Source of the DNA: Gonapodya sp. JEL0774
Lineage: Eukaryota
Assembly: GCA_027604505.1 (NCBI GenBank)
Contig: JADIIX010000016.1
Coordinates: 124,001-188,000 of the forward strand
Direction of reading: 5' to 3'
Length of the DNA: 64,000 bases
In this document: piece after piece, positions 642 to 50,045 of the stretch
Layout of the letters: each line of letters opens with the position of its first letter
How positions within the stretch are numbered: the stretch's first letter is position 1
Translations under genes and position numbers: made by a program
The notes under the pieces: model-generated
The model's database searches: none
What the model saw: the letters and a program-made list of their open reading frames with translations, nothing else
What the model was told of the DNA's origin: nothing

Positions 642-2840
642 ATGGGTCGCCGAGATGTCGAGAGGGACTCCGATTACTCACCGGGTCGACGTCACAAACA
701 GTCCTTCAATGTGTACACAAGCGGCACGCACATGGTTGGTATCACAGGAGAGCAAACGCAGCTCGCGTCTTGTGATGCTTGCACGAGGTCGGTAGTTATA
801 ATCCCACTGTCGATAAGCGGATTGGCTGGGATGACAAAGTCCGGTTCTCTCACATCCCGTAATTCGGTAGGCGGCGGGTTCGATGTGCACCTACAGTTCC
901 GTGCCCGCGATGCTCCAAACTAGGTGTGCCTTGCACAAGGTTCAGGAAAATCAAGAAAAGAGGACCTCGGCGGAAAGTGAGTGAGGTCCCTCCCGCGATA
1001 TAGCGTCGACGATGAGTAGAAGGACATAGTGTCAGAGAAGGATACGCTGAGTGCGATTGCCTTCCACTTAACGGTCCAATTCATGGCCTACGTCGTTGAT
1101 TGATGCATCCTGGTTGACTTACAGACGGATCAAAACCCCGGCTCTCTGACGGCCGAAGAGGAGGCTGCTGTGCAGCAAGCTCTTTTCGATAAATTAAAGT
1201 GCATTGAGAATGAGGCGAAAGGCAGGCGAAAAAGTACTGGTGGAGGCAGAAGTGGAAACATTGGCACATCGGTGTCGAGATCTGGAGCCAATTTGGAAAC
1301 CGATCCTGCAAGACAGTTCAGGGACAGCACGCGTGAAAGGAGCAGCGCGGTCGGAGGACAGAGAGAATCCAAGGGGCACAAAGCAGCAATGTCAGTGATT
1401 GTGAAAATGGAAATGGATACACCAGAGGTAATGACGGAAGCCATTCCTGGGATTCTCGAGCACCGTGGGGACCAAACAAGTTTCCCGTCACATCAGACTG
1501 GCTGTCCTCTCTCCCCGGAGCATCTTGTTCTTCGTCGTTCATCCCGCTCAAGACGTGCGGCGCGCTCTGTCAGTATCACCGGTACGACTCGTACTCAATC
1601 CTCCTCTTCTTCGGACAGTGCCACCTCCTCGTCTGAGAGACCTCTTGCTTGGAGTTCCGATTCAGGGTCCTCTTCGGAGTCAGGCCAACCAACGCGCAAG
1701 CGCCGTCGCCACTCTATCAAATCGTCTTCGACAAATGTTTGTGATGGTGACATGTACACATGCGACATTCCGGCAGCATCTGCTTCGACTAGTCGTTCCG
1801 TACGTACTATGTCATCCGTGTCTGCCTCGTCACGGTCACCGGCTCCTTCGGCTCCTTCGTTCCTCGATAATCATGGTTTAGCTGCCAGCCATGTTTTCTC
1901 CTTAATTGCGCCCCTCGAGCTTTACCCTGTAACTACTTGCCACTCGGACGTGACGAATCCGCCAGTAGTTTCCGCGGAAGGTCTATTACAAGAGGACTTC
2001 AATACAAATGGATCTTTTGTAGTGGTAGATTCACCAGAGCTCCGCAGCGGGATTCCCGTCTTACCAAGCGCCACAGAAACTGCGGGTAGCATACCCGGGT
2101 ATCCGCTGTCTCAATGGCATTCAAAGACCGACGCTCTGGTAGCGGGATCTTTGGAAATCGGCTCATGGCGAAGTGATGTCCGGCGGGCAATCGGTACTGC
2201 TCAGAGTCCGCTGCTCTCACTATCTATGGCGGCGACCCGTGCACTTACCGACATGAAAGAGGAACCTAACTACAACGATGATGAAGCAGAAGGGCTCGAT
2301 TGCTTGGGAGAACCTGATGGGGGCGTACGAGCAAACCTTACAACTGAAACTGACACAAACGTTTATCTTCACGACCTGAAGTCGTCCCAAGCCAACCCAG
2401 CGATGTTTGACGTAGATTCCCACCTTTTACCTGCAGCTGCAACTGCAACTTCCCGACCTGTATCACCTCAATGGGTACCCACCAACAATCTGGCTCCCCC
2501 GAGCGCTTTCGTTCCACGCACCCGTAGGAGACCGAACTTTTCACTCCCATTCTCTTACGTGTCCTTTCCTCCGCAAGATTCTTCTGTCGGCACACTCAAT
2601 ATTGCGGGTGACTCACACGTTGGACTTGGATCTTCGCAACGATTCAACTACATGGTGCCACCGGCTCCCGTTTCGACACGTTCAACCATTGACCCAGAAC
2701 CGTCATGCTTTTTGACGTTATCACCAGAGGACGAGCATCACCGGTTTGCGAGCGGACTCAAGGATATGGGATTGTACCTTCCCCAACGGAGCGCGAAGTT
2801 ATCACCAAGCGATTTGGACCTATTTGCGTCATTCCAATAG
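642..2840 (+). CDS. Zn(II)2Cys6 binuclear-cluster transcription factor with long Ser-rich C-terminus (3 exons)
   Basis: Removing GT-AG introns 788-870 and 977-1124 gives CDACTRRRVRCAPTVPCPRCSKLGVPC (C-x2-C-x6-C-x5-C-x2-C-x6-C) followed by KKRGPRRK, in frame with ORF 1170..2840. Start is ATG 642 or the next in-frame ATG (MVGITG). Confidence 0.88.
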
Positions 2841-3252: not shown

Positions 3253-6200
3253 CTATGCCACTTCCCATAACTTCAAATTGCCCTCCTTTCCAGAGCTAGC
3301 ACTAGCTAGAATGAGTATCCTACGTTGCCTCTTGGACGTTTGGTCTCGCGTCCCGACATCCCCCACCCCTTGCTCAGCGGACGAATCTTGAGAACCAGAA
3401 TGATCATCAGAAATCCATGCTCCAACACATGTGAGTCCTGAGATGGCACCAGTCAAGTCTTTGTCCTGGGCCGTCATCGCAATGACTGGTGACGTCCCGC
3501 CACTGCCACCCAACTTTCCGTATGGGGAGCCAGAACTAGAGGCCATTACAGGACTAGGATCCCACACATATAGCTTCTCAAATTCACCGAAAACGATCCG
3601 CGGGGGAACAACCGATAAACCCGGACGAAGTGGGGACGCAACGCGTTGTGGTGCAGAAGAAGACATCGCATGTTGCTCCTGAAGGAACGCGCAACTGCTG
3701 ACTTTCCCGTTGCTAATTTGCTGCTGAGCTGCGAGCTTGCATCCATCGGGGACGGATTGACCAACCTCCCACAAACAGATAATGTCATCCGATACGGTCG
3801 TCAACCACTGCCCATCGCTGCTCCAATCCAGACACATAATGTTCTTAGCATGTGGTGTTGAGAAAAGTCGGATTGACGCATCCCCTTCCGTTGTCGAGGA
3901 GAGCAGTGAAGCGGCTAAGTTCGCAGTTGACGCTTTACGAGAAGCAGACACCGGAATAGGAGGTGGAGGATTACTATCTTCTCCTGGTATTGAGAATTCC
4001 ACGATGTTCAGTGATGATGCCATAGCCGCGGCAATGGTGACTTGGGCGGACGCCGCTACCACAGGTGCAAGAGTGTTGGGTGGTCGAAAACGGAGGGGAT
4101 TGGAAGAGTATGCAGTTTTGGATGACTGTTTACGAATGGGGTTATTGATGCTCTCAATGATGCATGAGAAACGAAATGCGCACCAGTTTCAGAGATTTCT
4201 GACATTTTCCTGTTAATGGCGACCAAAACTTGAGCTCGCCCTCAGCGTCCAGGCTGCCACAGTACGCATTGATCCGCAAAGAAGCATCCAACCCTTCGAC
4301 GTTCACAGCAATACCCTCTGGTCCGATTACAGCGTGTGGACAGAAGTCAACGGCAGTGACGCTCGCACGGTGATCCAAGAATGTCCGAATGGGTTCAGGC
4401 ACAACCTCAGTTGGACCTAAGGGATACACTCGGACGGATTTATCCATCGAGCTCGTGGCTAACATCAATGGAAGCAAAGAAAGCAAGTGCTCCGTCGGCA
4501 GCGCACTAGCCACTCTCGAGACCACTCCACTAAAGTTAGACATTCGTACTGCGTTGACTGCTTGTTGATGGTTCTCCAATGTAAAGCGCTTGGACACCAT
4601 GCCCGGAGTTCCTTCAGGGACGTCCCACACGACCACCTTGCGGTCGTGCCCGCCGCTCACCAAGATCCTTGAAGAAGAATCAAAAGCACATGTAGCCACC
4701 TTGTTGTTGTGCACCTTGAGGTCGGCTAGTAGCGTTCCGGAGACCTTTCCGGAGGAGGGTTGGTCGACTCTGCTGGGTGTTCCCGGATTCATAGAGGTTG
4801 AAAGCGGCTCATGTGGAGCATCAGGCATGATACTGTCATCACTGGCAGTTGCCCAATCGTTCGGACCTCCGATAGCATTGTTGGAATTACTACTGGCCTC
4901 GTTGGCGAGCCACTCCATTCCGTAGTCGTTGTCGATTTCATCATGACCGAGGATGCCAGCCATCACAGATCCAAACTCACCACCCGCATTAACCGCCCCA
5001 CTCATATCCTAGTACCCAGGAAAAATACACCATTTAAACTCTCACGACAATTGAAAAATAGAAGCTGCTTTTCCCGGATACTCACACTACCGCGCGCATT
5101 CTCTGTGTTTCGTTCGGCATACGCAGCTGCCACCACTTCTTGCTTCAATTCAGCTAAGCGTTGAGCTTCTAGTACGGCCGGGTGAACCGGCGCAACTCCC
5201 TCCATTTGATACCCCGACGTAGCATCGATATGTGGCTTTGCCTCCATCAGAGCAATTGTTCCAGACTCAAGAGTAGGTTGAGGTGTGGCTGGCGCTGACG
5301 TTGAAGTGACAGATTGTTTTTTGGAAAGATGCTCACCCGTTTTACGTTTTCGTTTTGCCCCAACGGCAGGAGCAGAAGCAACGGGCTGTCCCGCATTGGG
5401 AGATTGGGTATTGGGATAACGTGGAGATGCTGGTGACTGGGGTGTACCAATTGCAGATGTCAGATCGGGTTGTGACGATCGAAGGATCTGAAATGTGCTC
5501 GGTTAGAGTCATAAAATGCAGTGGGATAATGATTTGAGTGGAGGCGACTGAGGAATTCGCACCTGCTGTTGTTGTTGCCGGAGTTGAGACTGAATTATTG
5601 CAAGTTGCGCTTGCGTACCAGCATTTGTACTCAAACCAAGATTGGCCGCAACACTACTGTTCATGGCCAACAACCTCTGGTCCAAATATTGTCCTTGACC
5701 CGGCAAACCCCTATGGTCACCGCCGAGGAACTGATTCTGCCCGATTCCGGCACCTGTCACTCCATTCATATTGTTCGTGAGTGATGATTGCATCTGCCCT
5801 CGGTTGAGCATCATGCGATACGGATGGAATGGATCCATTGAGTTGCCCAACGTCCCTTGGACCAACGCAGCACCCAGGCCGTTCGCTCCGTTCATACCAT
5901 TTCCTGTCGGTCCTATCTGGGAGTTCTGGAAGTCTTGTTGAGATTGAATCATCTGTGCATTCACCGTACCGTTTGAGCCAAACATAAGTGCATTCCCATT
6001 GACAGACTGAGATTGTGACTGAGCGGAAGGTGGTCGCTGTGCATAGGCCGATCCATTCATCATCGCAACGCCTTGTGCTGCGGCTTGATTTGACGCTTGA
6101 TCGCGGATGGCGTTCGCTTGCTGCTGTAAAGCTTGCATATGCTGTGAATGCTGTGCCTGGAGCTGATGCGCATACATTTGTTTCAAGCGGCTTGGGTCCA

Positions 6201-9200
6201 CTGTTGTCATATTGTTGTCCGTAGAAGTAGTAGCGCCATGGAAGTTCAACTGCCCGTGTTGCTGACCCCCAATAGTCGTCGGTACAGCACTTCCTCCTCC
6301 GTTCAATGACCCCGAGGAAGACTGCCGCTTCACAAACTTCTGCCTTTGAGCGTTCGCCTCACCTTGGTGCGAATGCTGCTGTTGCATCTGCTGCATGACA
6401 GGCATTGGTTGCTGTTGTCCTGGCCCATTCACTTGAGCCGCACCGGCAAATCCCAGCTGATGTTGTTGGCCCACTATGGAGTTTTGCAGACCTTGGTGAC
6501 TCAATGAAGCGCTTCCCATAACGTTTTTGTTGCTTGCAGCAATAATCCCAGTATCCGACTGTGCTGCAACAACTGCGGATTGGTTCGCTTGCTAATCAAC
6601 CAGCCGAGACGTCAAATCTTGCCCCCTGCAGCATTAATTTAAAAAAAACTCTTACCTGCTGCCTTGCAGCTGCTGCCGCAAGCATAGCTGCATTAACCTG
6701 CGATCCAGGAGTTGATCCTTGCTGTTGTTGGTGGTGCTGCAAACCGTACATTCTCATTGGTGCGCCACCCTGTTGACTGAGTCCAGCCTGTATCGCTCCC
6801 ACCATGCCTACAGCGCCGTCAGACTGCGGTACTTGTCCGTTCGCCTGGAGGCCGGAGCCCGTCAAGGCGGGTCCACCAGTGGATCCATGTCTTTGAAGCG
6901 CTAGAACCATCTGCCGTTCCTGGTTGCTGAGTTGGCTTGGGTCACGTCCAGACATACCCAACGCAGTCAAGGAAGCGTGCAGTTGTGCGGGAGTCAGGTC
7001 CTCAAAAGAGCCATCGGACCCAGAGACACCTGACGAAGCCGCTTGGGCAGTACCATCTCGCCCCAAATCAGGAGAGCTCCCAGCCGCAGGCTTGGCAAAA
7101 GAAGCAGAAGATCTTGCGAGCCCACTAGTTTGATTCACTGTGGAGGTAGGAGTAGGTACGTTCTCCGGAGTGCTAGCGACAAACTGTCCTCCTTGCGAAG
7201 AAGAACTTGCAGGAACAGCTGAGACACGGAGTCCAACTGCCCCGCCTGCGGTGCGGCCCGTCAAGGAGTCAAGGAAGCCCTGAGACTCGCGAAGCGGCGC
7301 GGACTGTGCGGGGGAGTTGGCTGTGGCGTGGTTTAAGGTTGTGGTTTGGTCCAATTCCCGAATGCGAGCCTCGTGCACCTCCCAGAAGATGCTCCACCAT
7401 TCGTACAGGAAACTTTCTGGGAGGTCCTGAGGGGGTACGGCTGGGGTTGAGTCGCAGCGAAAAGGTCAGTTCTTTGAGGCTCGGCATATCCAATCGGAAC
7501 AACAGGAACCCGGAACAAAACGGACTCACCTCCCCCCAATCCTGCTTCCTCACTGAATGCCCTCGCTGCCGCGTTATACCTCCGCTTGCTGAGATAATCG
7601 AGTATGTATATCTCGAGACTGGGAAGCGGATGCGAAATCAGTTTCAAAACATAGGACAACCGAATCATGAGCTCCCATCACCCGAAAGCGATGCCTGCCT
7701 GGAAATCTTTCAGTCAACGACAGTACTTACATTCTTCTGCTTTCCTTGTCTGGATCCTCGTGCCCACTCACATTGCCCACTGCGGATGCTGATGCCATAG
7801 CGCCTCCTCCGGCTCCACCAGCGATCCCTCCAGGTCCCACTCCCCAAACTCCACCAGGGTTACTCGCTCCAAGTCGATCATCCTCTTCGTCACCTTTTAG
7901 CGCGTTTCGCGCAGCGGGAGATTCCACTGTCCCACGGGTGACGTCCTGGCCGGTCTGTTGGCTGCCGACTCCATTCGGCCCCGACACTCCACTCGCTCTC
8001 AGAACAGCCGCGGCAGACAGCTCCCGCTGTCTTTGCGCAGCAGCCTGCTGGACTGTCTGCGCTTGAAGAAGATTGTCACGTATAGCTTTTGCGCCCAGGG
8101 AGGCACCTGGGGGAAACTGGCCCGCACCTCCTGCTCCGAATCCCGAAAACGCAAGCCCAGAGAGACTCCCCAAGTTCATACCGCTGGCACCTGCTGACGA
8201 CATGTACGATGGGAGACGCGCCGTGAAGTGGGCTGTATGGTCGTTGGAGAAAGGGATGCCAGCAAGGTGCGCAACAACCGCTGCAGATGTAGTAGAGGAG
8301 GAGGTGGTGGGGGCGTGCGAGGATGCACTTTGAAAGTGAAAGTTCGACGGCCCAGGTTGTGTCGTGGACATCATGTTGAGGTGTTCGCCAGCGTTCAACG
8401 CCCCTCCCCCAGGATAGCCAAAATTCAGACCTGGGATCGACCCTTGGCGCCCGACAGCAGCGATTGAGGCCGCCATCAGAGCTTGTGCAGTCGACGATGG
8501 CGCGGGCATCCCCTGAGATCCGTTTGGATCAATAGATGAGCCGGGGCCATAGCTAATCCCCAGCCCCAAGCCAACAGAGGTGGCAGAAGTAGTAGTACTG
8601 GAGGCTGACGAAACAGTGGTCTGCTGTCCCTGTTGTCCCTGCAGCCCCTGCTGTTGAGCTTGACCGACAGTTCCTTGAGGGTTACTGAGTCCACCGACCG
8701 GAGCTGACCCGTTCACCGGATTCCCAGTTGAGTTTTGCTGACCCAACATTCCTGCCAGGCTCGAAAAAGCCTGTGCCCCAACTGACGACGCATGATAGTT
8801 AGATGCAGAATTCCCAGCACCGGATACCGTTAGCGTAGGATACCCAAGGGTGGACACCAAATGAGCACTTTGACCTTGTTGATGAGCAGCAAGGGCGGAG
8901 ATGTTTTGTTGCTGTGAATGCTGTTGACCTATATGGTGAGATATCTGTTGGGAAATCGCTGAAAACGGGAATTGCCCGTTTCCAGCCTGGGTCAGTCCAA
9001 GCATGTGAAGCTGGTTCGATTGATGGTACTGCTGATTCTGCTGCTGTAGTTGTTGTTGTGCAGCTGCAGAATGTTGTTGTTGCTGCTGCTGTTGGTGGAG
9101 GAGGAGGGCAGCCGCGGCGGCTGAGTTGGAGTGCTGCAAGAGCTGGTGTGAAACAAATTGAGGTTGTCCCTGCTGAGCTTGGTTTTGTTGTTGGAGCTGG

Positions 9201-9271
9201 CCTAATTGTTGGGCATAGAGCTGGGACTGCTGAAGGTGGAATGGGTGGACAGGATGCGGAGCGGCGGCCAT
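3253..9271 (-). CDS. LEUNIG-like transcriptional co-regulator: Q-rich N-terminus, LisH/LUFS domain, Q-rich middle, C-terminal WD40 repeats (multi-exon)
   Basis: LisH 'LEIYILDYLSKRRYNAAARAFSEEA' (~7540-7620); LUFS 'LPESFLYEWWSIFWEVHEAR' (~7365-7423); WD40 segments 'HNNKVATCAFDSSSRILVSGGHDRKVVVWD', 'LATSSMDKSVRVY', 'HRASVTAVDFCP', 'HAKNIMCLDWSSDGQWLTTVSDDIICLWE', 'LASASSGKEGNLKLWE'. Exon joins only partly verified. Confidence 0.85.
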
Positions 9272-10848: not shown

Positions 10849-12465
10849 ATGTCTGCCAGAATCCCATCCGTCATGCGCGTTGTCGTAAACAAGAAGCCCT
10901 CTGGCTCAATTCCGAAACCTTCTGACCGCTACGATCCAATCGAAATCAAAACGGTTCCCGTTCCCAGGCCTGTGAAGGACACAGTGCTTATCAAACTGCG
11001 GGCAGCGGCGCTTAATCACCGGGATGTGTACATTCGCGAAGGTTCTTCAATGTTATCTTGGGATTGGATAGATGCAATCGGCTCCGCGCAAACCGATCGT
11101 CCGGATCCCCTTGCTTTTCAGGCCAGTATCCCGCCATTCAATTCGGGTCTACCCTTGCTGCAGATGGAGCAGGCGACGTGGTAGCTGTTGGGGAGGGCGT
11201 CGAACCAGTTTTGGTTGGGAAGCGAGTGTACATAAATACTTCCGTGGGGTGGGAATCAAACCCGAGAGTTCCGGAGGACCCGAGGAAGTACGGTATGTTA
11301 AGCACTGCACTTCCTGGTACACCTTGAGAATCCATGCCAATGCACGGATAGGTGTTCTGGGCCACTTGCCTCTCCCTGGAACTTTGGCGGAATACATCTT
11401 GGTTCCGAAGTCTGTGGTTTTTGAAATGCCGTCGCACTTGACGTACGAGGAGGGTGCTGCGGTCCCTCTCGCTGGTCTCACGGTAAGCTGTCCTTCCCGA
11501 CGCTCACGCTTTTCAACGCCTTTAAAATCAATTTTACATTCGCAGGCATGGCGAGCGTTGGTTACGCTTGGGGAGGCGAAGAAAGGTGATAAGATTCTCA
11601 TCCCAGGAATCGGCGGTGGCGTGGCACTGTTTGCATTGCAGTTCGCTGTCGGTCTTGGATGTGAAGTGTGGGTGACTTCTGGAAGCGAGGAGAAGTTGGC
11701 AAGAGCGATTGCGGCCGGTGCTAAGGGGGGCGTCAACTACAAGAAAGGTAGGAATGACTTTCTCATTTGGTTTCATCAAACTTTGGGGAACGAGCTTATT
11801 AAAGTCACGGAATCCTCCTCTGCGCCGTCGTTCTGTAATGCCACTGTACTCTTAAGCTGACTGGGTTGCGGAGCTTGAGAAGAAATCTGGCGCCAATTTT
11901 GGTGAGAGTTGTCAGCGTCCGTGAATCGTCACGGCGATTACTCTCACCAACGGTTCATTGTTGTAAACAGATGCCGTTATTGACGGATCCTCTGGACCAA
12001 ATACGCGTCAATTTATTAGGCTGCTGAAAGCTGGAGGTATAATCAGTGTATTTGGAGCCGTGGCTGGCAGCAACGTGCAAATTACAATGTAGGTTACAGT
12101 GTTTTCGAAGTCCGGTGGTCCTAATGTGATGCTAACCTCTTTGAATAAATCGCAGGCCATACGTGGTGAGACTTGCGTTTGGGAGGGCGGGAATCCAGTA
12201 ATCGCAGTATTCCAATAACCTACCGCTCATTTCCTTACTCTTTCCAAAGTGGTTCAAATCTGCTCAGATCCGCGGCTCTCAAATGGGAAATAACGCCGAG
12301 TTTCGCCAAATGACCAAGTTCATCGAAGAGACCAAACTGAAGCCCGTAGTCTCAGGGGTATGGGATGGACTGGAAAATGCTGAAGGTGCTTTCCAAGAAA
12401 TGAGGGCAGGAAGCCAGTTCGGCAAACTCGTTGTCAGAATTGATCCCACTGAGGCAAAATTGTAG
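10849..12465 (+). CDS. Medium-chain dehydrogenase/reductase (quinone oxidoreductase-like, zinc-binding ADH family), multi-exon
   Basis: 'VLIKLRAAALNHRD', 'DGAGDVVAVG', 'GTLAEYI', 'AAVPLAGLTAWRAL', 'ILIPGIGGGVALFALQFA', 'RGSQMG', 'QFGKLVV'. Confidence 0.92.
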
Positions 12466-32000: not shown

Positions 32001-32322
32001 AGTACATTCATGTCGAATGACACAGTCATGGACTCATGGTCGCCCCTGGGTTCCTCCAGAGCTTTTGCATTGGAGTGAATCAGAAAGTGGGCAGATCTGA
32101 GAAATCTTCGCTGTTCAATGGGGACTAACTAATTCACTTGGTTGTGTGATTGGGGATGTGATCTGATCTGGACCACAGCAACCACAGCCGACTTCTCCCC
32201 CACACCACACAAATCCCTCCCCAACACAGACACTCGGGCCACAGTCCGGCGGGATTGGCCCGATTCCCCCTGATCTCCACTTGCCGCGACACACCGCACA
32301 CACGCCACACACGGCCACACAC

Positions 32323-35300
32323 ATGCCGCCACCGGGCGACTCCACATCCCCAGACGGCACTCCCACCGAGATCTGCTCCCTGCTTGCCGCCTGCAAGTAC
32401 GGGGACGCAGACGCAGTCCGGTTGTTCCTGGACGCGGGCGCACAGGTTGATGAGATCGATGCGGATGGGAACTCGGCGCTGATGTGGGCGGGTGCGTTGT
32501 TGTTGTTGTTGGGGGTGGGTGGGTGGGGTGCTTGGGTGGGCGGGTGGGGTGGGGTGGACATGGGGCGTCAAGGGCTGTGGACAGTGGGAGACAGTCTGCG
32601 GACACAGATTGCACAAGCAACCGTGACTCATGGGTGGCGGCAAATTCAACTTGACCCGTGTTGGCTCCGTCCATCCCCCGCTCACGCATTCCCATCCCCA
32701 CATCCCACCACCCACCCGGTCCCCCTCCCGTTCACACCCACCCACACTTCCCAGCACTCGGCGGATTCACAGACGCAGCCGCTCTTCTCCTCACCGCAGC
32801 CACCGCAGGAACCGCAGCAACCGCAGCCACCCCCCCTCCCCCGTCCCCCCGCGCACTCCTCGCACACAGGAACCACAAGGGCGAATCCCCCCTCCTCTGG
32901 GCGGCAATGGCCCCTTACGAACCCCCTTCCTCCCTCTCCCTCCTCCACCTCTCCTCCACCTCTGCTCCTTCCACGTCCCCGTCCCCGTCCCCGCACCCAA
33001 ACCCAAACCCCTCCGACTCCGACTCCGACTCCGCAACTCTCCAAAACCTCCCTGCAGTCCGCCTCCTCCTCTCCCACGGCGCTGACCCAAACACCGCCTG
33101 CGACAGACTCGCCTGGACACCCCTCATGTACGCCTGCTGCTACGGAAAGCACCTCGTCGCCCGGGTCCTCCTCGACGCCGGCGCAGACCCCGCCGCCAGA
33201 AACGCCGGGGGACACACGGCCCTCGGCGTCGCGCAGAATTACGGCAGGAACGATGTCGCCGCGATGCTCAAGAAGGCGGCCAGGGATAAGAAGGCGACGA
33301 CGACGGCCACAGGTGGTGGAGTCACGGTGGCAAGGGTGCCCACAAAGGGGGCCGCCGCGGCGGGACACGGTGCGGGTGGTGGTGCCACAGGGTCTACAGG
33401 GACTGCCGGTGCCGGTGCCGGTGGGACATCGACAACGGCATCTGGATCCGCAGCCGCACCACATCCCTCGTCCGCATCTCACCCCACCTCCACCTCACCA
33501 TCCACCCCCCCTGTCCACATCTTCCGCGGCCACACCGCATTCTCCTCGGGCTCCGCCTTCTCCACCAGCACCACTACCGCAGCCGATCCATCCGACGCCG
33601 CCCTCCCCCTCCCCCGCTCCCGTTCCACAGCCGCCGGTACTTCCAGATCCACATCTTCCTCAATCACGAAAACCCCTCCTCCGGGAACCCCAAAGGCTCC
33701 CCACAGGGCCGCTCCCCCGCCTCCCCCGGGCTCAGGCCTGGGGGCGCTGGTGGATGCTCCGACTCCAGCCAACCCAGCTTCAGCTTCAGCTTCAGGCGGC
33801 GCCCCACCGATCCACTCGACGACACCCCCCACCCCCACCCCCACCGCTGCCCCGCCCAAATCCACCTCGCTCTCCTTCTCCCGCCTCCTCAACGCCCTGT
33901 CCCGTCCCACATCGTCGGGGTCCCTCCACGCGGGGGGGGATAAGGACAAGCCGGCCAAGGACAGGGACAAGGAGAAGCACAGGGACAAGGAGAGAGAGGG
34001 CAAGGAGAAGGAGAGGGACAAGGACCGGGCCGAGAAACCTGCCCTGGCGACGGCGACGGCGACGGCACAGACCACGGCCACGGCGACGGCGACGGTCACC
34101 ACGTCCGCGACGGAGCTTGCGACGGGGCACCACGCAGGGGTCAAGGAGATTGTCGGGAGGTGGAACGGGGGTGCGGGGGGTGTGGGTGTGGGGGGATCGG
34201 GACCGGGATCGGGCGTTGGATCGGCGCCTGCTCCGGCACCGACACAGGGACCTGTTCAAGTTCACGCATCCGCATCCGCATCCGCCACGACCACGACCAC
34301 CCCACAAGCGACACATCCGTCTGGACAGGGTTCCGGGGATTCCGACGACGGTGATTCGGGCCCTGCTCTTGCTCGGACCGTCGAGGGTGGTGGTGGTGGT
34401 GGTGGTGTGGACGTGGGCGTAGGCGTCGGTGTGGGCGCCATCAGAGCAAGGTTTGAAAAGGGGGACAAGACGCCAGGAGAGGAAGGGGACAAGGTGAGTC
34501 CCGGTGTGTGCCTCATGCTGGTATGCGTATGCGATATTGGGGTTTGGGGGTGTACGGAGAGATGAGATGGTGACTCAACCTCAACCTTGGCGTTCGGGGG
34601 ACTCGTTGACACACCACACGCCCATCTCCACACACCACCTACCCCCCCTCCCCCGCTTACCGACCAGATAAAACCTCCCACGGACCTTGCACCCCCTCCC
34701 GCTCTGCACCCGCCTTCCCCGTCCGCCTCCGTGGGTCCCACAACCACAGCCGACCGCCCGTCCTCCCCCTCTGCACCACCCCATCAACAACGAAGCCCCT
34801 CGCAGTCCATCACATCGACCCCGACGGAACTTGTCACTCACGTGATGATCCCTCCTCCTCGGACGGACTCGTTGTCGTTGGCGGGCGGGCAGGTGGGTAC
34901 CCCGAGATGGGCATGTGCGGGGGAGAGTCGTGTGGTCCATGTTTCTCACCGAGTCGTTTTGTTCGTCGGCGGGTTCTGTCGTGTATTTATTTTTATTGGA
35001 TTTCTTTCTTTTCTTTTGTTTTTTTTTTCTTTTGGTCATTTTGGTTTGTCCTTTCTCGTTTGTTTGCTGTTGTTTTCGGCGCCGTAGATGGGCGTGCCTG
35101 CACAACCTCTTGCCAGGAACCCGTCCACCTCACAGCGTCCCACCACAACAACGTCTCAAACCGCGCCCACGAAACCCGCCAGTCAACCTCATCTTTCGAA
35201 ACCAGAAGCCTCAAATGCATCCCCCAAGGCCACTGCTGAACCTCTGGTATTCGGTCAAGCCGAACGCCCCATTGGCGGCAAGAGCCCTTCGGATTCCCGT

Positions 35301-36731: not shown

Positions 36732-39700
36732 TCAACCCTTTGGAAGAAGATTCGCCATGGAAGCAACTGAAGGACTCTGTATGAATCCTGTTTTCATTAC
36801 GATCCCATCACTTTTTGTGTTGGAATCTCCGTCCTTGGCTGTAAATTCTTGTCTTGTCTTGACATTGATGTCCTCTGAGGTGGATTTGGAGAAGAGTACC
36901 CGGACGGCCGCAAAAGTGGCTATCTTCAGCGGTTGCGATAAGAAAAGCGATTCAATGAAGCTAACAACGAATGAAACAAGCCACTGTCCATGAATGTGGC
37001 ACGAAAATGACTGAAGTTTAGCGTTCCGTAGGCTTTACGGACGAAAGAAAAGCGCAACGTACTGGCTCGGAGACCGCGTTGTCCAACCTCAAACCAATAA
37101 TTAGTGCAATATAGAAAGCGAGTCCTCCAGCCGCAAACGCGAGTGCGTAGGCCACATACAAGAATCCATAGGGCAGGAGCCAACGCGCTTCATCATTCTT
37201 TTTCGATTGCGAAAGATTTTCTTCCCCTTCTTTTCTTCCTTTCTTCGAGGTTCTATTGTACCTAATTCGACGGAACGTCTGTTCGATCAGCATCGACACT
37301 GGCAGAACAATGGCAGAAGAAATAACCCCCGTTGCAATTTTGTGCAAAAGACTGGTTTTCGGTCGAGTGTCGTACTGCCGAAACGACACACACCGATTAG
37401 GTACCGATATGGAGTCGTAACAAGAAGAACACTCACGAAAACGGCAAGAATCGCCATATTACATAAAAGCACCATGAAGCACACGGTTAAACGCTGGACA
37501 CGGGTGTAATGGGACCCTTCCAACCGAGAAAGATGTGGAGCTTTGCTTGACAATGCCCCCCAAAAGAATAACGTTCATACCAAATGGTCTGGTTTCGGCA
37601 AGAGTTGCCGCCCATAAATGATTGTCTCGGAATCCAATGATAATATACTTGAGGAGGGTCAATGAAAAGCTTTGTGCGAGACGCGTTCTAAAACACAGCA
37701 GCTAAATCAGGGCAGCTCAGAGGGAACAACTCAAGACATATTCCTACTAACTTATCGCGAACCGACAAGACAACCGCGGTCCTGTCCCCGATATCGTTCT
37801 CCTGGACCGGCTCCTTAATGATAAAACTCCACTCCTCCGATGTCTCATAGCAACGGACGGAAACCTCCCCAGGCTGCCATGTTGCAGGTGGTCCCTTCGA
37901 GGATAATTTACTTTCTTCCAACTTTATTCCCACTGTTTCCAGGTGTTTGATGTGAGGTGCCTCCACATAAAATATGACCTTTTGGTTCTTCTGCAATAGA
38001 AGGCGCCCCATGTACCAAGTTTTCAATTGAAGCTCTCCACTGTGCTCTCCGTTTGGGCCACGAAATGAAATACTCATTGTGTGGGTGCGGCGGATGTTGG
38101 TGGCTTCACGAGTGTTGATGGTCACCTGGAATATCACAGGTTTGTTTTCTGAGATATGGTTGTACAACAATATTAAAGAACATTGTTTGAGAATATAGGG
38201 TCAACAGACGTACTTACCGTGAATATCCCAGCGAACTTTCTTAAGTTCAACGGCGTCATCTCGCCAGAACTTACAGGCAAGTACAACATACACAACGACT
38301 GAACGGAACGATGAAGGTTCACTTGGGAATACTCTCAGCACCCAAAGTTGACGATAAATCCTACCAATGGCAATGAGAACAGCAAGAATGGTGGGGTTTC
38401 CCTGAATTTGTTCCGCAACGTTTCCAACATCCTGAAAGGGATTGTTGATTGTAATCAGATCGTCCCACGACCCAAAGTCCATCCTGCGGATATTGCGCCA
38501 TGAATTGAAATTCCAGAGTGAATGATATCAAATGAGCAGAGGTTTAAATTCAAATCTGACATTCCCCGCACTCACGTAAACAGGGATAAGTGTGTCGTGC
38601 AGCATTTGAATGGAATGGAGGAACTGCTATTCTGGGTCTGAATTCCCGCAGAGCTCCAATTTCCGATCGTAATATTCCAGAATAAACAGGAAGGGAGGCG
38701 TCCAGGTCGTCCTGGATTGAGATGATCGGTCTACTACACTTTGAAGTGATTGAAGCCGCCATTCAGCAATACACACCTCCTCGAACGAGTGGGACTTGCA
38801 GTTCAATGCAGGAACTCAAATTTTCGACGACTACATCTGTTGCATTCTCTGTAACACCAAAATAAAGTGCTTGGGACCAGTTGCTTTGTTGGAGGTCAGT
38901 TTTCTCTCAGACGGTCGAAATCAAACGCACAAAGCTTTCCTCACCTCAGCGACGCCCCGACTGAATTATCAAATGGGTTCTTATTCATGCTAACAAGATG
39001 TAATTGAAATCCGGTGGAAATCGTTCCCTGTAGTATCTGCGTCAGTGACTGATTGAGATTTGAAACAACAGCACCGTCAGAAGAACTGAGAGATTCAGGA
39101 AGCTGACTGCTGGCCCCGTTGTATACTGTAATTGAAAAAATGGATGAATTGACTTGCGTTGTGTTACCAACGGTTGTACCCTCGCCGAGGGCTTTCGCCA
39201 AATTCTGGATTGCACCAAGAAGTGAAGTGGATACATTACTGCCTACAACATCAAAGCGAGTACTGTTGGTGGCTTTTGTTGCATTCACCGACAAAGCCGA
39301 ACTGTTCTCCGTGCTCATCCAGGCTTTGTCTATGCAAGTAAGAATATTTGTGGCAGCGTCCAGGGATGCCAGCCCACCGTTACCACGGGTCGCTCCCGTA
39401 AGTTTCGAAAAAGTTGTTAGAGCACTAACAAGCAAGGTTTCGTTGAAAGTCGACGGCATAAGCGAGGGGAAGATTGTGCTGGCTGCAGAAAGGGCCTCAG
39501 AGACTCCACTTCCCGGACTCTGTGCGAGAACGACGTCAGAAAGGACATCCAAAACATTGCTCTTCACATTGTCGATCGGCGTGGCTGAATCAGTCGCGGA
39601 CGAGTTGCTTTGTTCATTAACCAGCTGTTTTGCGATCTCAGACACCCCTGAAAGTATCTGAGGCAAGTTCGAAGTAGCGTTTGGAGACACACCAGCCGCT

Positions 39701-41405
39701 CTGAGAATGCCCAAGTTGTTGGACGCCACCGTCATGTCAAATTGTGAAGGTGATGCTAACACCACCACGTCCGTCTGAGTATCCCACGATTCATTATTAT
39801 CTGTACGGTATATTTCGGTGATTAAGGGAACTGTACCATTCACCGACGGGTCGCCTCCAAGCGGTAATTGGAAGCTTTGTAGAGTTGAGTTGAAGGTTGC
39901 AGTCTCAGTCAAGTATACTTTTGACTTGGAGGAAAGTGTGCTATTCAACCACGCAAATCTGTACTTGAGAGCCATGAAGTCGTCGGTCAACCACCCGTCG
40001 CATTGTAGTGTGAAAAGTGTGGCACCTGCCGAGCCAATTTGTGGAGACACGCGGCACTTTCCTCCGATGGGCGATGGGCATTTAGTCAATATAGCGGAGC
40101 ACACTCTCGGATAGTTGCTCGTGCACGAATACAAGGAATTCCCCGAAAGAATGCATGTAGACAGTTTGGGTGGAAAGAATCCGTCGCAATTCGAAGAAAA
40201 CATGTTGTTGCTCAGATCCAACGAATTCAATTCGAGAGCCCCAGACACATTAAAATAACCACTCAACAAGTTTGAGCTGCAGCAGAGGCGAGGAGGTGTG
40301 TACACTCTACTTGTTGTATACAACTATGTGACTCCAAAACTCACCTCAAATTGAGTGAAATTAAACTGGGCATGGATACGAGAGATTGAGCGCCTGCGGC
40401 GGCGAATACGTATGAAATTTGATTCCTGGACAAATCCAGAACACTCAAAGACGGGAGTGTTGACGAAACAAAAGAGGTCAGTGGGCCTGTCAAGCTGTTG
40501 GAATCCAGTCTCAATTCTTGTAATGTTTTATGGTCTAGCACCGGTAGCGCTCCTGAAATATTATTGTTTCCAAGATCGAGTTTCTGCAGTTTTGGAAGAT
40601 TGGGGAAAAATGTCGGGAGAATAGATCCGAGTATCCCACAGCTTCGTGCTTCCAATTGCAAAAGTGTGTCAGAGGCGCCGTTCAACAACGAGAGGTTCCC
40701 GGTCACGTTGGTGTTCGAAATGGAGAGGTATTTAAGTGGTGAGCTGAAGTAAGTGGGAAGAGTTCCAGATATAGAGGTGTTGGCGGCCTGGAAATTGATC
40801 AGCGAATAGCGCAAATTGTTCACAAGTACGGTTCCAATATCTCCTTGAACCTTCAGATTATGAGACACATCCAAGACTCCGAGAAATGGCAAGTACGTTA
40901 GACCGGACTCCAGCGTACCGGTCACAAATGACTTGGGAAATGCGCCTTCAAAAGCATTCCGTGAGATGTTTAGGGTGGTGAGCACAATCAAATTTGAGAC
41001 AAATGCCAGTGATCCGCTGAGGAAGTTAGAAGCCAGGTTAAGTGAGTTCAGAGAACCAGGGAGCGTGGGTACAGATCCGGATAAATTGCAGTTGGACAAA
41101 TCTAATGATGTCAATGCACTAGCATTGGCAACTGAAGCAGGTATTGCGCCCGATAGAGCTATTCCGCTCAGATTCACAGATGCAAGTCGTAAGACGCCAG
41201 TAAAGTTCTGACATCCGAATAATGCTGAGTAATCACAGCAAGAGCCAACCCTCCATGGAACTTTTATGCCAGATTGAGCAAACAGATCTTGGGGAAACGA
41301 GCAATCCGTCGCCTGGTTTGCTAGGTTTGCGACATCAACGTAAGTAACGCTCGAGACTTTCGCAGTCAGAAGAGACAGGAGCGCTGGGAGTATCCACCGT
41401 GACAT
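36732..41405 (-). CDS. Polycystin-1 (PKD1)-like receptor: signal peptide, LRRs, REJ-like region, GAIN/GPS, TM1, PLAT, TM2-5; no channel domain
   Basis: Signal 'MSRWILPALLSLLTAKVSS'; LRRs such as 'LTSLDLSNCNLSGSVP'; REJ-like 'CRVSPQIGSAGATLFTLQCDGW'; GPS 'CLFWNITIGNWSSAG...CCTTHLSLF'; PLAT-like exon 37688..38170; 'FRDNHLW', 'YTRVQRLTVCF', 'WLVSFVVSFIESLFLSQPLKI'; stop at 36732. Confidence 0.85.
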
Positions 41406-41610
41406 CGTTCGACTACGGTGTTCAGATCAAAAACTGATCGGGTGGACAGGCACACCAAGTCTGTTCCTGCATTTTATGTAATACTTGACCATTGATTGAT
41501 GAACCAATCGGAAGAGCTGCATTGTAAAATTTGAAGATGTCGTGTGCTTTCCGATGAATTATGTATGAGTTCATAGTGTCGGCTCAACTTCTTCCACACA
41601 CAGTTTTCAA

Positions 41611-47138: not shown

Positions 47139-50045
47139 TCATATCTGAATGGCAATAGACGACTCTCGGTAGAGAATCACCGGGTTTGTAACGCCTGCCA
47201 CGGAGACGGTCGTGAAGGTGCCGGAAAGAGTTTTGCCAGATTCCACCATGACGACAGAGTAGGTTCCGGGCGAAGGCACGTAACCCGCGGTGAACTCCAC
47301 AATCAAACTGCCGCCTCCGATGGTGGCGCTGCCTGCACCCACTACGTGAATTTTGGATCGAGGACTTTGACTGCTAAAGACAACCCTCAGGGTACCGTTT
47401 GCGGTCTGTGCAAAGCCAGTGACTTGGACAGCCTCGGTCACTGTCAAGACCCCACCATCGACATATACCAATCCACGCCCCAAAGCGTACTCTGAGCCCG
47501 CTACGAGAGTACCACCAGATACCAGGGTTCCCCCACTCCACGAGTTCTTTCCAGTGAGTGTCAACTGACCCGTGCCATTTTTAACAAAGAGACCTCCTCC
47601 CGAAATGTCGTTCTTCCAAATGTCTTTCGCACTGAACGATCCGTCGGCGCCATTCATTGTCACTGTGACGTCACCTTCAAACGCGCCGAAGCCATCTGCA
47701 GCGTCGAAGAGGTTGATGCGGCCCCAGCCCTCCTCATCATCCATAAGTGGATAACCTGACGGGAAAGCAGTAGTCTTGAGCACCACCCTCCGTTGATCCG
47801 CGGTAAGGTATGGGAACCGGGTCTCGAGAAGCACTTCTGCGCTTTTGGGGACGTTTGCGGGAACACCCGATGGACCGACCTTCGGAAGATTGTACGTTGC
47901 GCGGCGAAAGTACTCGGCTTTGTTAGTAGCCCAGTCTGCGAAACGATCCTGTATGTAGGACTTGTCAGCGTCGCTCGGATCTTTTAGTTCAGCTCAATCA
48001 AACCTGACCTTTGATAGATCCGAAGTGTGTGCAGCTGCATAGAAAGTGTCCCAATCCGTCAACCCTAAGGCAGTCATGAATGCCTGGCGAGCCTGTGCGA
48101 CTGCGGCTGGCCCTTTTCCTGCGGCTCCACCCACGGCAATGTTGGACGCAGCTGTAGCGTGTGCAAGGATCCTACCGCCTAAAATTTGGAGTCAAGTTTA
48201 CCATCGAACCGTCCAACTAGTTCTCCACAGAACCGCCGACTTACCAATAACATCCGTTGGGCTGTGCATACCTGCAAATATGCGACTCTCTCCGAGTTCT
48301 AGTGCACGCGCTAGCATTTCTTGGAACCGAACTGGGTTTGCGTACGCAATGGCAATAGCTTTTCGAACCCCTTCGGCTGTGTGACCACTTGGCTGCCCAC
48401 CTGAGAGAATGAGAATAAATTGTGTCTCCAGGACTTGACCAAATTAAGATAAGACATAATAGAGTCCTCACCATCCGTGGCGGGCGTCGTCGAAATAGCG
48501 GGTACGAGTTCTGGCAGCACTGAGACAGACTTCGTCCATCGGAACGGACGAGCATACTTGAAAAATCGCTTCGTAGGCTCAGTGGACGCTGATCCGGCCT
48601 GACCGTTCACGAAATCGACAACGAGCCCAAATGCAGTGTTCGTGGCTGATCCAACACCAGGGTCATTTCCAGCATCGCTGTAGGTTTGGTTCAGGGCGTT
48701 GGGTCCTATTTCCGTGATGGTCGTCGTGAGTTGGGCAAGACTGCGGTAGAGATCTGTGAGCGGACCCATTCCATCTGACACAGAGTAACCTTTGTTACGT
48801 CGATCGTCAAGGTATGCAAGCAAACCCTGCGCGGGAGTGCGAGTGGTTGTATGATTCACCACAACCCGCAAGTTTGCTTCGTGAACCACGGCGTTTAATA
48901 CTTTGCCATCAGTAGCATCGCCTGGAATGCCTGTCCAATTTGATGGAGTCACGGCAGGACAGGCGCCATTCGCAGGAAGAGTAATTCCCGCGTCCACTAA
49001 AAGAGTACTCGGTTGCCAGATATCAAGAAACTTGGAGAGGACTCGAACACCAGCGTTGGTGCCTACAGTGACGAAGCACGCATCGTCGCGGCGATTTGTA
49101 GTCCAAGTATCGACATAGGCAACTATGTTGGAATTGACCGGAGCGGTTGCCGGTACTCCCAGTCCCGTTGGTTTAGCAGGAAGTTGGACAGCTTTTGTAG
49201 TTGCAGTGCTGTTCATTCAAGTCATTCCATCAGTGAAGTGGCATTCCCTGTTGAAACACAACACATACGAAGTAGTTTGTGAGAGGGCAGAGGGTTTTGT
49301 CGTTGATGTCGTTGTGATTTTGATGGTTGCTGTGATCAATCTGGAGCGTTACTGAGATATCAGCAATTGAACGATCCTTGTTCAAACAAATTCGCCTACG
49401 TGGTGGGTTTGGAGACAGTAGTTGTGTATTCAAAGTTTTTTGGGACGAACTGCCGGAAAGCAGAGTGGCAAATGTATGAAAGTGAAGCAGAATGATTGAA
49501 TTCTCGCGGAACTTTCAGAGCGATTCATACTGGGGGTCCCATCGCCACTCACATCAATGCACTCAGCACCTATGTTCCAGTACTTCAACGCAAGCGGGAA
49601 GCTAGCAAGGGTTCCATAATCCACAACTTTTCCTCCTTTGACCTTCACGCCATATGCGATCGCGAGGTTCGGGCAGATGATTTGGTCTGAGTCCAGCAGA
49701 TCATCGCACTCCAACTCCGCCCAGGCTTTACGTGTAGCAGTGTCATTGAGTTTTCCCCATGTCCTAAATGCACACGCACCAATGAATGCAGAATCTGTGA
49801 GGTGTGGCACAACGCTACTCACCATTTGTCCGGTGGTGGGTATACAACGCCGAACTGCTGCTGTACATAGTTGCACCACTGTTTCTTTCCGGCAACGGTC
49901 GTGGGTAGAGTCACATCACTTCTAGATTGAGGTCAGTAGGTGTTTCGAGCAGCGCCAGAATGATGTTTTGTACCCACGGGAGGGGTGCTGCCGATGTGAT
50001 GCTAACGCAGGCAGCCAAAAGCGCGATTGACCCGGCGAGATGCAT
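47139..50045 (-). CDS. Secreted PAP2-superfamily acid phosphatase with C-terminal autotransporter-associated beta-strand repeat (multi-exon)
   Basis: PAP2 motifs 'KRFFKYARP', 'PSGHT', 'SRIFAGMHSPTDVIG'; 'LLETRFPYL...DDEEGWGRINLFDAADG'; repeat 'ISGGGLFVKNGTGQLTLTGKNSWSGGTLVSGGTL'; signal peptide 'MHLAGSIALLAACVSITSA'. Linkage of the 5' exons is inferred. Confidence 0.88.

Follow-up and report, generated by a model that had tools for sequence, protein, structure and literature searches.

A gene for a predicted LEUNIG-type co-regulator in the fungus Gonapodya sp. JEL0774, with a WD40 propeller that likely shares ancestry with that of plant LUG

Introduction

Does a fungus carry, in a single gene, the complete layout of LEUNIG (LUG), a plant co-repressor that regulates flower development, and is its WD40 propeller related to that of LUG by descent? 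The question is raised by a locus of the water-dwelling Gonapodya sp. JEL0774, which we analyzed within a stretch of 64,000 nucleotides (nt) of contig JADIIX010000016.1 (positions 124,001 to 188,000; hereafter the 64-kb window, to which coordinates refer). A first-pass annotation had pointed there to a LUFS domain, glutamine-rich (Q-rich) tracts and C-terminal WD40 repeats, as in LUG and LEUNIG_HOMOLOG (LUH). Judging from sequence comparisons, the locus is probably one gene for a LEUNIG-type nuclear co-regulator composed of LUFS, a Q-rich linker and WD40, with a propeller likely co-ancestral with those of LUG and LUH.

In plants, the LUFS domain of LUG binds SEUSS (SEU), and repression by LUG likely proceeds via class I deacetylases and Mediator (PMC13395540). 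SomA has a LIM-domain-binding protein, PtaB, as its binding partner, just as Flo8 has Mfg1 (PMC4631450), and dimers of SSDP bind LDB via helix 3 (PMC6800368). Helix 1 of LisH represses in many proteins (PMC9564828). LUG and SEUSS have been dated to at least 800 million years in a 2026 study that sampled streptophytes only (PMC13395540). Among the literature matches listed, which lay mostly outside subscription papers, we found no published report of LUFS-WD40 proteins in fungi. Family databases may already place these fungal proteins with LEUNIG.

Results

Gene model and domains

The gene lies on the minus strand (9271→3253), with its ATG at 9271 and a stop codon that ends at 3253. Reading of the splice sites gives seven exons that join into 1847 amino acids (aa) with no internal stops, separated by six introns, all GT-AG, of 112, 89, 64, 75, 77 and 58 nt in order (Table 1). 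With the WD40 part of exon 6 as a protein query we retrieved HDU93_002232 of Gonapodya sp. JEL0774 (P0001, 1673 aa), at 100% identity, and a G. prolifera protein (P0002, 1787 aa) with 71% identity over that region. The NCBI model P0001 equals the seven-exon model from Met175 (8749) through the last residue, and P0002 is collinear with the 1847-aa model along its full length, all exon joins included. The first 29 aa are identical at 26 positions between our model and P0002; because these N-terminal residues are kept in P0002, we place the start at 9271 rather than at Met175. P0001 likely misses 174 conserved N-terminal residues (8749-9271, minus strand). The open seven-exon frame, the match to P0001 and the collinearity with P0002 bear out the earlier proposal of a single gene, and the gene predictions suggest one transcript from LUFS to WD40.

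For comparison with plants, a LUFS motif pattern search of metagenome records returned at least 120 loci; in 119 of those listed the LUFS is of a single, nearly invariant type, and in one (L051) it is chytrid-like. Fifteen listed loci are full transcripts with an N-terminal LUFS, a Q-rich middle and a WD40 end, and encode four distinct proteins (L003, L010, L015 and L017) that, from their layout, we take to be plant LUG/LUH. The Gonapodya LUFS, in which PESFLYEWW begins at aa 551, matched a profile of plant LUG-type LUFS at E 4.6e-15. The linker to the WD40 region spans 795 aa with 12% Q, peaking at 23 Q per 100 aa, against 15-25% Q in the four plant proteins; the glutamine-rich linker noticed earlier is therefore present, but the 'polyQ' is patchy and below plant values. 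Plant LUG-type proteins have RKRK at a similar distance upstream of WD40 as KRKRK in Gonapodya. The WD40 region extends from aa 1373 to the final residue. The proposed layout is confirmed.

Pfam searches of P0001 and P0002 detected LisH and WD40-type families only, with family-specific propeller models all far below their cut-offs, and no Pfam family for the N-terminal domains of TPL, Tup1, Groucho/TLE or TAF5 (presumably CTLH/CRA, Tup_N, TLE_N and TAF5 NTD2, respectively) was found in either protein at E ≤0.001. A Pfam scan of exons 1, 3, 4 and 5 gave no family match. The 30-aa second half of LUFS had no match in the PDB, and a LUFS-based protein search with 18 candidates recovered the protein itself and no other. 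In the AlphaFold model of P0180, the ortholog from Paraphysoderma (not of the Gonapodya protein), 28 strands are predicted with high confidence and the N-terminal part is disordered; Foldseek matched this model to the seven-blade propellers PkwA and WDR5, which speaks to the fold only.

Intron 1 bears on the origin of LUFS. In the plant LUG-type loci examined (n = 19), a phase-2 intron lies in the codon preceding the first LisH leucine (acceptor in 19/19, donor in 18/19), and intron 1 of the window gene has exactly the same place and phase. The chytrid-like LUFS of metagenome contig L051 (2648-2900, plus strand) reaches 103 bits with the plant LUFS profile, above every named fungal protein; the contig has no intron within LUFS, intron 1 being absent.

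A fungal family

A WD40 profile made from window exons 6 and 7 and the metagenome protein P0005 was searched against 1.84 billion representatives. Among the best 150 library matches, 20 matched in one to four stretches and 130 in 9-20 repeats. Profile matches, cluster members and one further match (P0267) made up a family set of 26 proteins. Eight of these combine LUFS and WD40 within a single record and score 48-92 bits on the plant LUFS profile, compared with at most 0.4 bits for the three best other proteins. The eight come from Gonapodya (two), Anaeromyces, Synchytrium, Irineochytrium, Quaeritorhiza, Calcarisporiella and Chlamydoabsidia; named family members further include Paraphysoderma, Basidiobolus, Syncephalis and four Mortierellaceae. 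We take these genera to represent chytrids, Neocallimastigo-, Blastocladio-, Zoopago-, Mortierello- and Mucoromycota. The first-pass annotation had presented the layout as that of one fungus; it is indeed found in Gonapodya, but is not confined to it.

A quick maximum-likelihood tree was computed from 33 WD40 rows (19 fungal, 4 plant and 10 generic), leaving out seven near-duplicate or fragment fungal rows and using generic repeats as the outgroup. The fungi form one group (Shimodaira-Hasegawa-like approximate likelihood ratio test, SH-aLRT, 99) with the plants outside it. Within the fungi, the chytrid-type rows including Gonapodya fall together (SH-aLRT 100), as do the Mortierellaceae (99). 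Because the outgroup consists of generic repeats, a sister relation of plants and fungi is beyond the power of this tree. Its agreement with the fungal groups fits inheritance since early fungi. Horizontal transfer from a plant to Gonapodya was rejected, as the protein sits deep inside the fungal group.

The WD40 propeller compared with plant LUG

Several comparisons place the fungal propeller near that of LUG. On the fungal WD40 profile, the best single stretch of the four plant proteins scored 141-165 bits, whereas none of 270 other WD40 proteins exceeded 92 (median 63). A profile of fungal blades 3-7 gave the plants 64-77 bits over nearly its whole length and other WD40 proteins no more than 45; run against the PDB, this profile gave natural single propellers summed scores, each from several stretches, of about 71 bits at the highest, and the 60 PDB matches listed reached about 165 of its 260 positions at best. 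Profile-profile alignment of fungal and plant WD40 covered 285 of 293 plant columns, and exon 7 aligned with plant blades 5-6 at an hhalign probability of 88.6. In the reverse direction, a plant profile of four sequences placed seven fungal proteins at the top when single stretches were ranked, with 125-134 bits against 121 for the best of the others. Of ten Atlas clusters shown for Calcarisporiella P0039, all were Streptophyta and six were named LEUNIG or LEUNIG_HOMOLOG (scores 0.91-0.92, 180-189 features in common).

The order of the blades was compared by cutting them apart and re-aligning them freely, with blade limits set by alignment to the plant proteins, controls included. The same-numbered plant blade was best for 7/7 blades pooled over 21 fungal rows and for 5/7 in the window protein. 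The control stretches, the 19 among the 270 WD40 proteins that span at least 250 profile positions, reached 0-4/7 (median 2). The resemblance to LUG in WD40 order, noted in the first-pass annotation, thus holds for the family and for the window protein. The propellers of the fungal family and of plant LUG/LUH likely have a common ancestor. The link appears good for the fungal family and indirect for the fast-evolving Gonapodya member, because the similarity of the latter to LUG runs through less diverged fungal relatives.

Features of the fungal form

In Gonapodya sp. JEL0774, 514 aa precede the first LisH leucine (14% Q overall, with 35 Q in the first 100). LUFS is preceded by 507 aa in G. 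prolifera, 330 in Quaeritorhiza, 28-112 in the other five full-length fungal proteins and 10-35 in plants, in keeping with the earlier remark that an extension of roughly 500 aa is atypical. Because its LUFS is not N-terminal as in LUG/LUH, we regard the Gonapodya protein as a variant rather than a plain member of that group.

A 42-aa motif in the middle of the linker is common to 7/8 full-length fungal proteins and was not found in that of Anaeromyces. With Gonapodya left out of the profile, the window protein was still matched at E 7e-07, and with the two Mucoromycota proteins left out, both were matched (E 2e-08 and 4e-07); four plant LUG-type proteins and the controls gave no score. An assignment to SAP/LEM was rejected (LEM E 0.061 in 1/5 members; best PDB match E 0.087). 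Our guess is that the motif may be a small helical binding module. It is new and conserved from chytrids to Mucoromycota.

Discussion

Evidence against a shared propeller and alternative explanations

A number of results weigh against a LUG-type protein with a shared propeller. As a single query, the Gonapodya WD40 region gives plant LUG 17-23 bits, level with generic WD40 proteins, and an Atlas search with that of the G. prolifera ortholog returned generic STRAP-type WD40 clusters. Identity between fungal and plant WD40 is 25-29%. By summed scores on the plant profile, the best fungal protein (134) falls behind FBW7 (167), ATG16L1 (158) and WDS (155), although the matches of these three are out of register, and a profile of plant blades 4-7 ranks 40 generic proteins above the first fungal one. 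The evidence that this WD40 is closest to LUG is therefore clear from fungal profile to plant, at background for the single sequence, and mixed for plant-to-fungus summed scores. Moreover, the 270 control proteins are mostly near-consensus repeat proteins rather than single eukaryotic propellers, and the comparisons behind the LUG affinity contained no aligned Tup1, Groucho, TPL, TBL1 or TAF5. The acidic patch before WD40 was rejected as evidence of ancestry, as 6-18 of 300 shuffles reached the plant scores; for the patch of the Gonapodya protein against the fungal profile, 69/300 shuffles reached its score, which is not significant. The plant intron in blade 4 (donor in 13/19) and window intron 6 differ in position by one codon, and the plant loci have their second LUFS intron three codons away from window intron 2. 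Both were rejected as marks of common ancestry owing to these offsets, so that only intron 1 counts, and its match speaks for LUFS alone. Finally, 18/26 family records, of 244-902 aa and many of them partial, are without LUFS. Basidiobolus P0041 (784 aa) and Actinomortierella P0097 (863 aa) start with Met and have no LUFS; they may be split gene models or truly LUFS-less forms.

These LUFS-less records are what would be expected if two adjoining genes, one Flo8-like and one for a WD40 protein, had been wrongly fused by gene prediction. We consider this very unlikely: there is no stop and no gap above 112 nt between the domains, the linker is conserved, with 22-66% identity to G. prolifera in stretches of 50 aa, and the joined protein occurs in eight separately annotated genomes. 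An independent fusion, in which early fungi joined an unrelated WD40 propeller to a LUFS protein of Flo8/SSDP type and converged on the LUG layout, has more in its favor. LisH with a C-terminal WD40 arose in several families, such as TPL and HOS15/TBL1 (PMC9564828), and the window WD40, compared directly with LUG, does not rise above background, nor is the plant-to-fungus ranking clean. LIS1 and TAF5 are further families with LisH and a C-terminal WD40. However, single-stretch scores, full-length collinearity and blade register all favor LUG, and the low ceiling for natural single propellers of the PDB on the blade 3-7 profile, given above, also speaks against it; convergence of this kind seems improbable to us.

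Related propellers could also reflect a gene passed long ago between the green lineage and early fungi, since the full-length layout was seen here only in fungi and streptophyte-type sequences and the 2026 study of LUG took in streptophytes only (PMC13395540). Neither group is nested in the other, though, both have long stems, and the fungal tree follows the fungal groups. The gap in other eukaryotes is itself uninformative: plant LUG itself scores 30-49 bits on the library WD40 profile, below the 131 bits needed to be listed, and the absence of Dikarya, animals and protists from the library matches is accordingly no evidence. A third protein search, crowded by multi-repeat WD40 proteins, likewise had no plant LUG among the 120 matches listed. 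We regard transfer as an unlikely origin, slightly behind independent fusion. On the preferred reading, the protein is a fungal variant of the LUG co-regulator and likely ancestral: we infer that plants and fungi likely both received this layout from their common ancestor, and that Flo8/SomA and animal SSDP likely lost the propeller.

Comparison with known systems

The Gonapodya protein resembles plant LUG/LUH in its LUFS, Q-rich linker, basic motif, seven collinear WD40 blades at the end and intron 1 position. It differs in being twice as long, with the long N-terminal extension, in a propeller of 473 aa with long inserts versus 286-289 aa in plant LUG/LUH, and in the mid-linker motif, which the fungal proteins have and the four plant LUG-type proteins do not. 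Flo8, Mss11, Som1 and SomA of Dikarya, compared by description, share a LUFS with LisH and a nuclear signal; they are described without WD40 and act as activators, whereas the Gonapodya protein, whose LUFS was recognized by the plant LUFS profile, ends in a propeller. The text of PMC4631450, in which SomA has 784 aa, does not mention 'WD40'. The animal SSDP/SSBP2-4 proteins also share LUFS, and P0002 weakly matches the SSDP/SSBP2 structures 6s9r and 6tyd (E 0.0016-0.0046). After LUFS, SSDP has solely a non-conserved, likely disordered tail (PMC6800368), unlike the Gonapodya protein with its propeller. TPL/TPR, HOS15/TBL1, Tup1, Groucho/TLE, TAF5 and LIS1 are alike in having an N-terminal oligomerization module, a linker and a C-terminal propeller, but in P0001 and P0002 the family-specific propeller models of Pfam all stayed far below their cut-offs. 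Judging from published work, the propeller was probably lost in Dikarya and animals.

Proposed function and evolutionary meaning

By analogy with its relatives, the Gonapodya protein would not itself select DNA. Its LUFS would dimerize and, via the third helix, bind an LDB-type adaptor (SEUSS, Mfg1/PtaB or LDB1 class). Short motifs of transcription factors would be contacted by this adaptor and by the WD40 surface, and the Q-rich regions would provide multivalent contacts to chromatin enzymes and Mediator. The protein would then be a nuclear scaffold, recruited to promoters through the adaptor and WD40 contacts. No SEUSS/LDB-type partner was found among 19 long open reading frames (ORFs) of the window scanned with Pfam, and no genome-wide search was made. 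As plant LUG represses while fungal Flo8 and SomA activate, the expectation is split nearly evenly: repression by the Gonapodya protein may be slightly the better guess, and activation, or both activities, is almost as plausible.

A wider scenario seems to us to stand at even chances. The ancestor of plants, fungi and animals would have had a full LUFS-Q-WD40 co-regulator with an LDB-type partner; Flo8/SomA and SSDP would have been truncated independently, a switch from repressor to activator would have followed loss of the propeller, and early fungi would have retained the full form and added the 42-aa module; LEUNIG would then not have originated in plants. A full-length fungal family would push the LUG design back towards the eukaryote root and would trace plant LUG-SEU, yeast Flo8-Mfg1 and animal SSDP-LDB1 back to a single ancestral complex. 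It makes testable what the propeller contributes, and whether its loss made a repressor an activator. This is an evolutionary extension of a known system and not a new mechanism.

Other features of the window

Table 1. Features of the LUFS-WD40 gene of Gonapodya sp. JEL0774 (window coordinates)
Feature	Position	Strand	Remarks
Exon 1	7731..9271	-	Start codon and 514-aa Q/G/S/A-rich extension upstream of LUFS
Exon 2	7530..7618	-	LisH helices; Pfam LisH 23.1 bits (cut-off 21.6)
Exon 3	6656..7440	-	LUFS second half (PESFLYEWW...), S/G-rich linker, conserved mid-linker motif
Exon 4	5563..6591	-	Q/N/G-rich linker, 11-23 Q per 100 aa
Exon 5	5086..5487	-	Linker with basic KRKRK motif
Exon 6	4184..5008	-	Acidic patch, WD40 blades 1-3, start of blade 4; Pfam WD40 52.9 bits
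Exon 7	3253..4125	-	WD40 blades 4-7 and stop codon; Pfam WD40 27.4 bits
Intron 1	7619..7730	-	Phase 2, in the codon preceding the first LisH leucine
Intron 6	4126-4183	-	Interrupts the WD40 propeller
LUFS domain, aa 509-573	7352..7747	-	Contains introns 1 and 2; plant LUFS profile score 49.9 bits
Mid-linker motif, 42 aa (aa 688-729)	6884..7009	-	No significant Pfam or PDB match
KRKRK motif	5341..5355	-	Likely nuclear localization signal (predicted function)
WD40 propeller, seven blades, aa 1373-1847	3256..4738	-	Long inserts; interrupted by intron 6

The gene is flanked by a convergent 578-aa S-rich ORF without a Pfam match (1104-2840, plus strand), the two stop codons lying about 410 nt apart, and by a divergent upstream neighbor (10850-12465, plus strand) that belongs to the zinc-binding dehydrogenase family. 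Self-BLAST detected no repeated DNA within the window. The segment 26000-36000 has a G+C content of 0.60-0.65, compared with about 0.50 elsewhere, and strong opposite GC skews; within it lie ankyrin ORFs (32167-34562) and an ORF of 924 aa that matches no Pfam family. On the minus strand, an ORF at 47142-47993 contains a passenger-associated transport repeat (PATR; 37.5 bits, cut-off 27). PATR is a family of bacterial autotransporters, and this ORF may encode a bacterial-type secreted enzyme in a fungus. Also on the minus strand, adjoining ORFs at 38944-41426, one rich in leucine-rich repeats and one with a REJ domain, are perhaps parts of a single large surface receptor gene.

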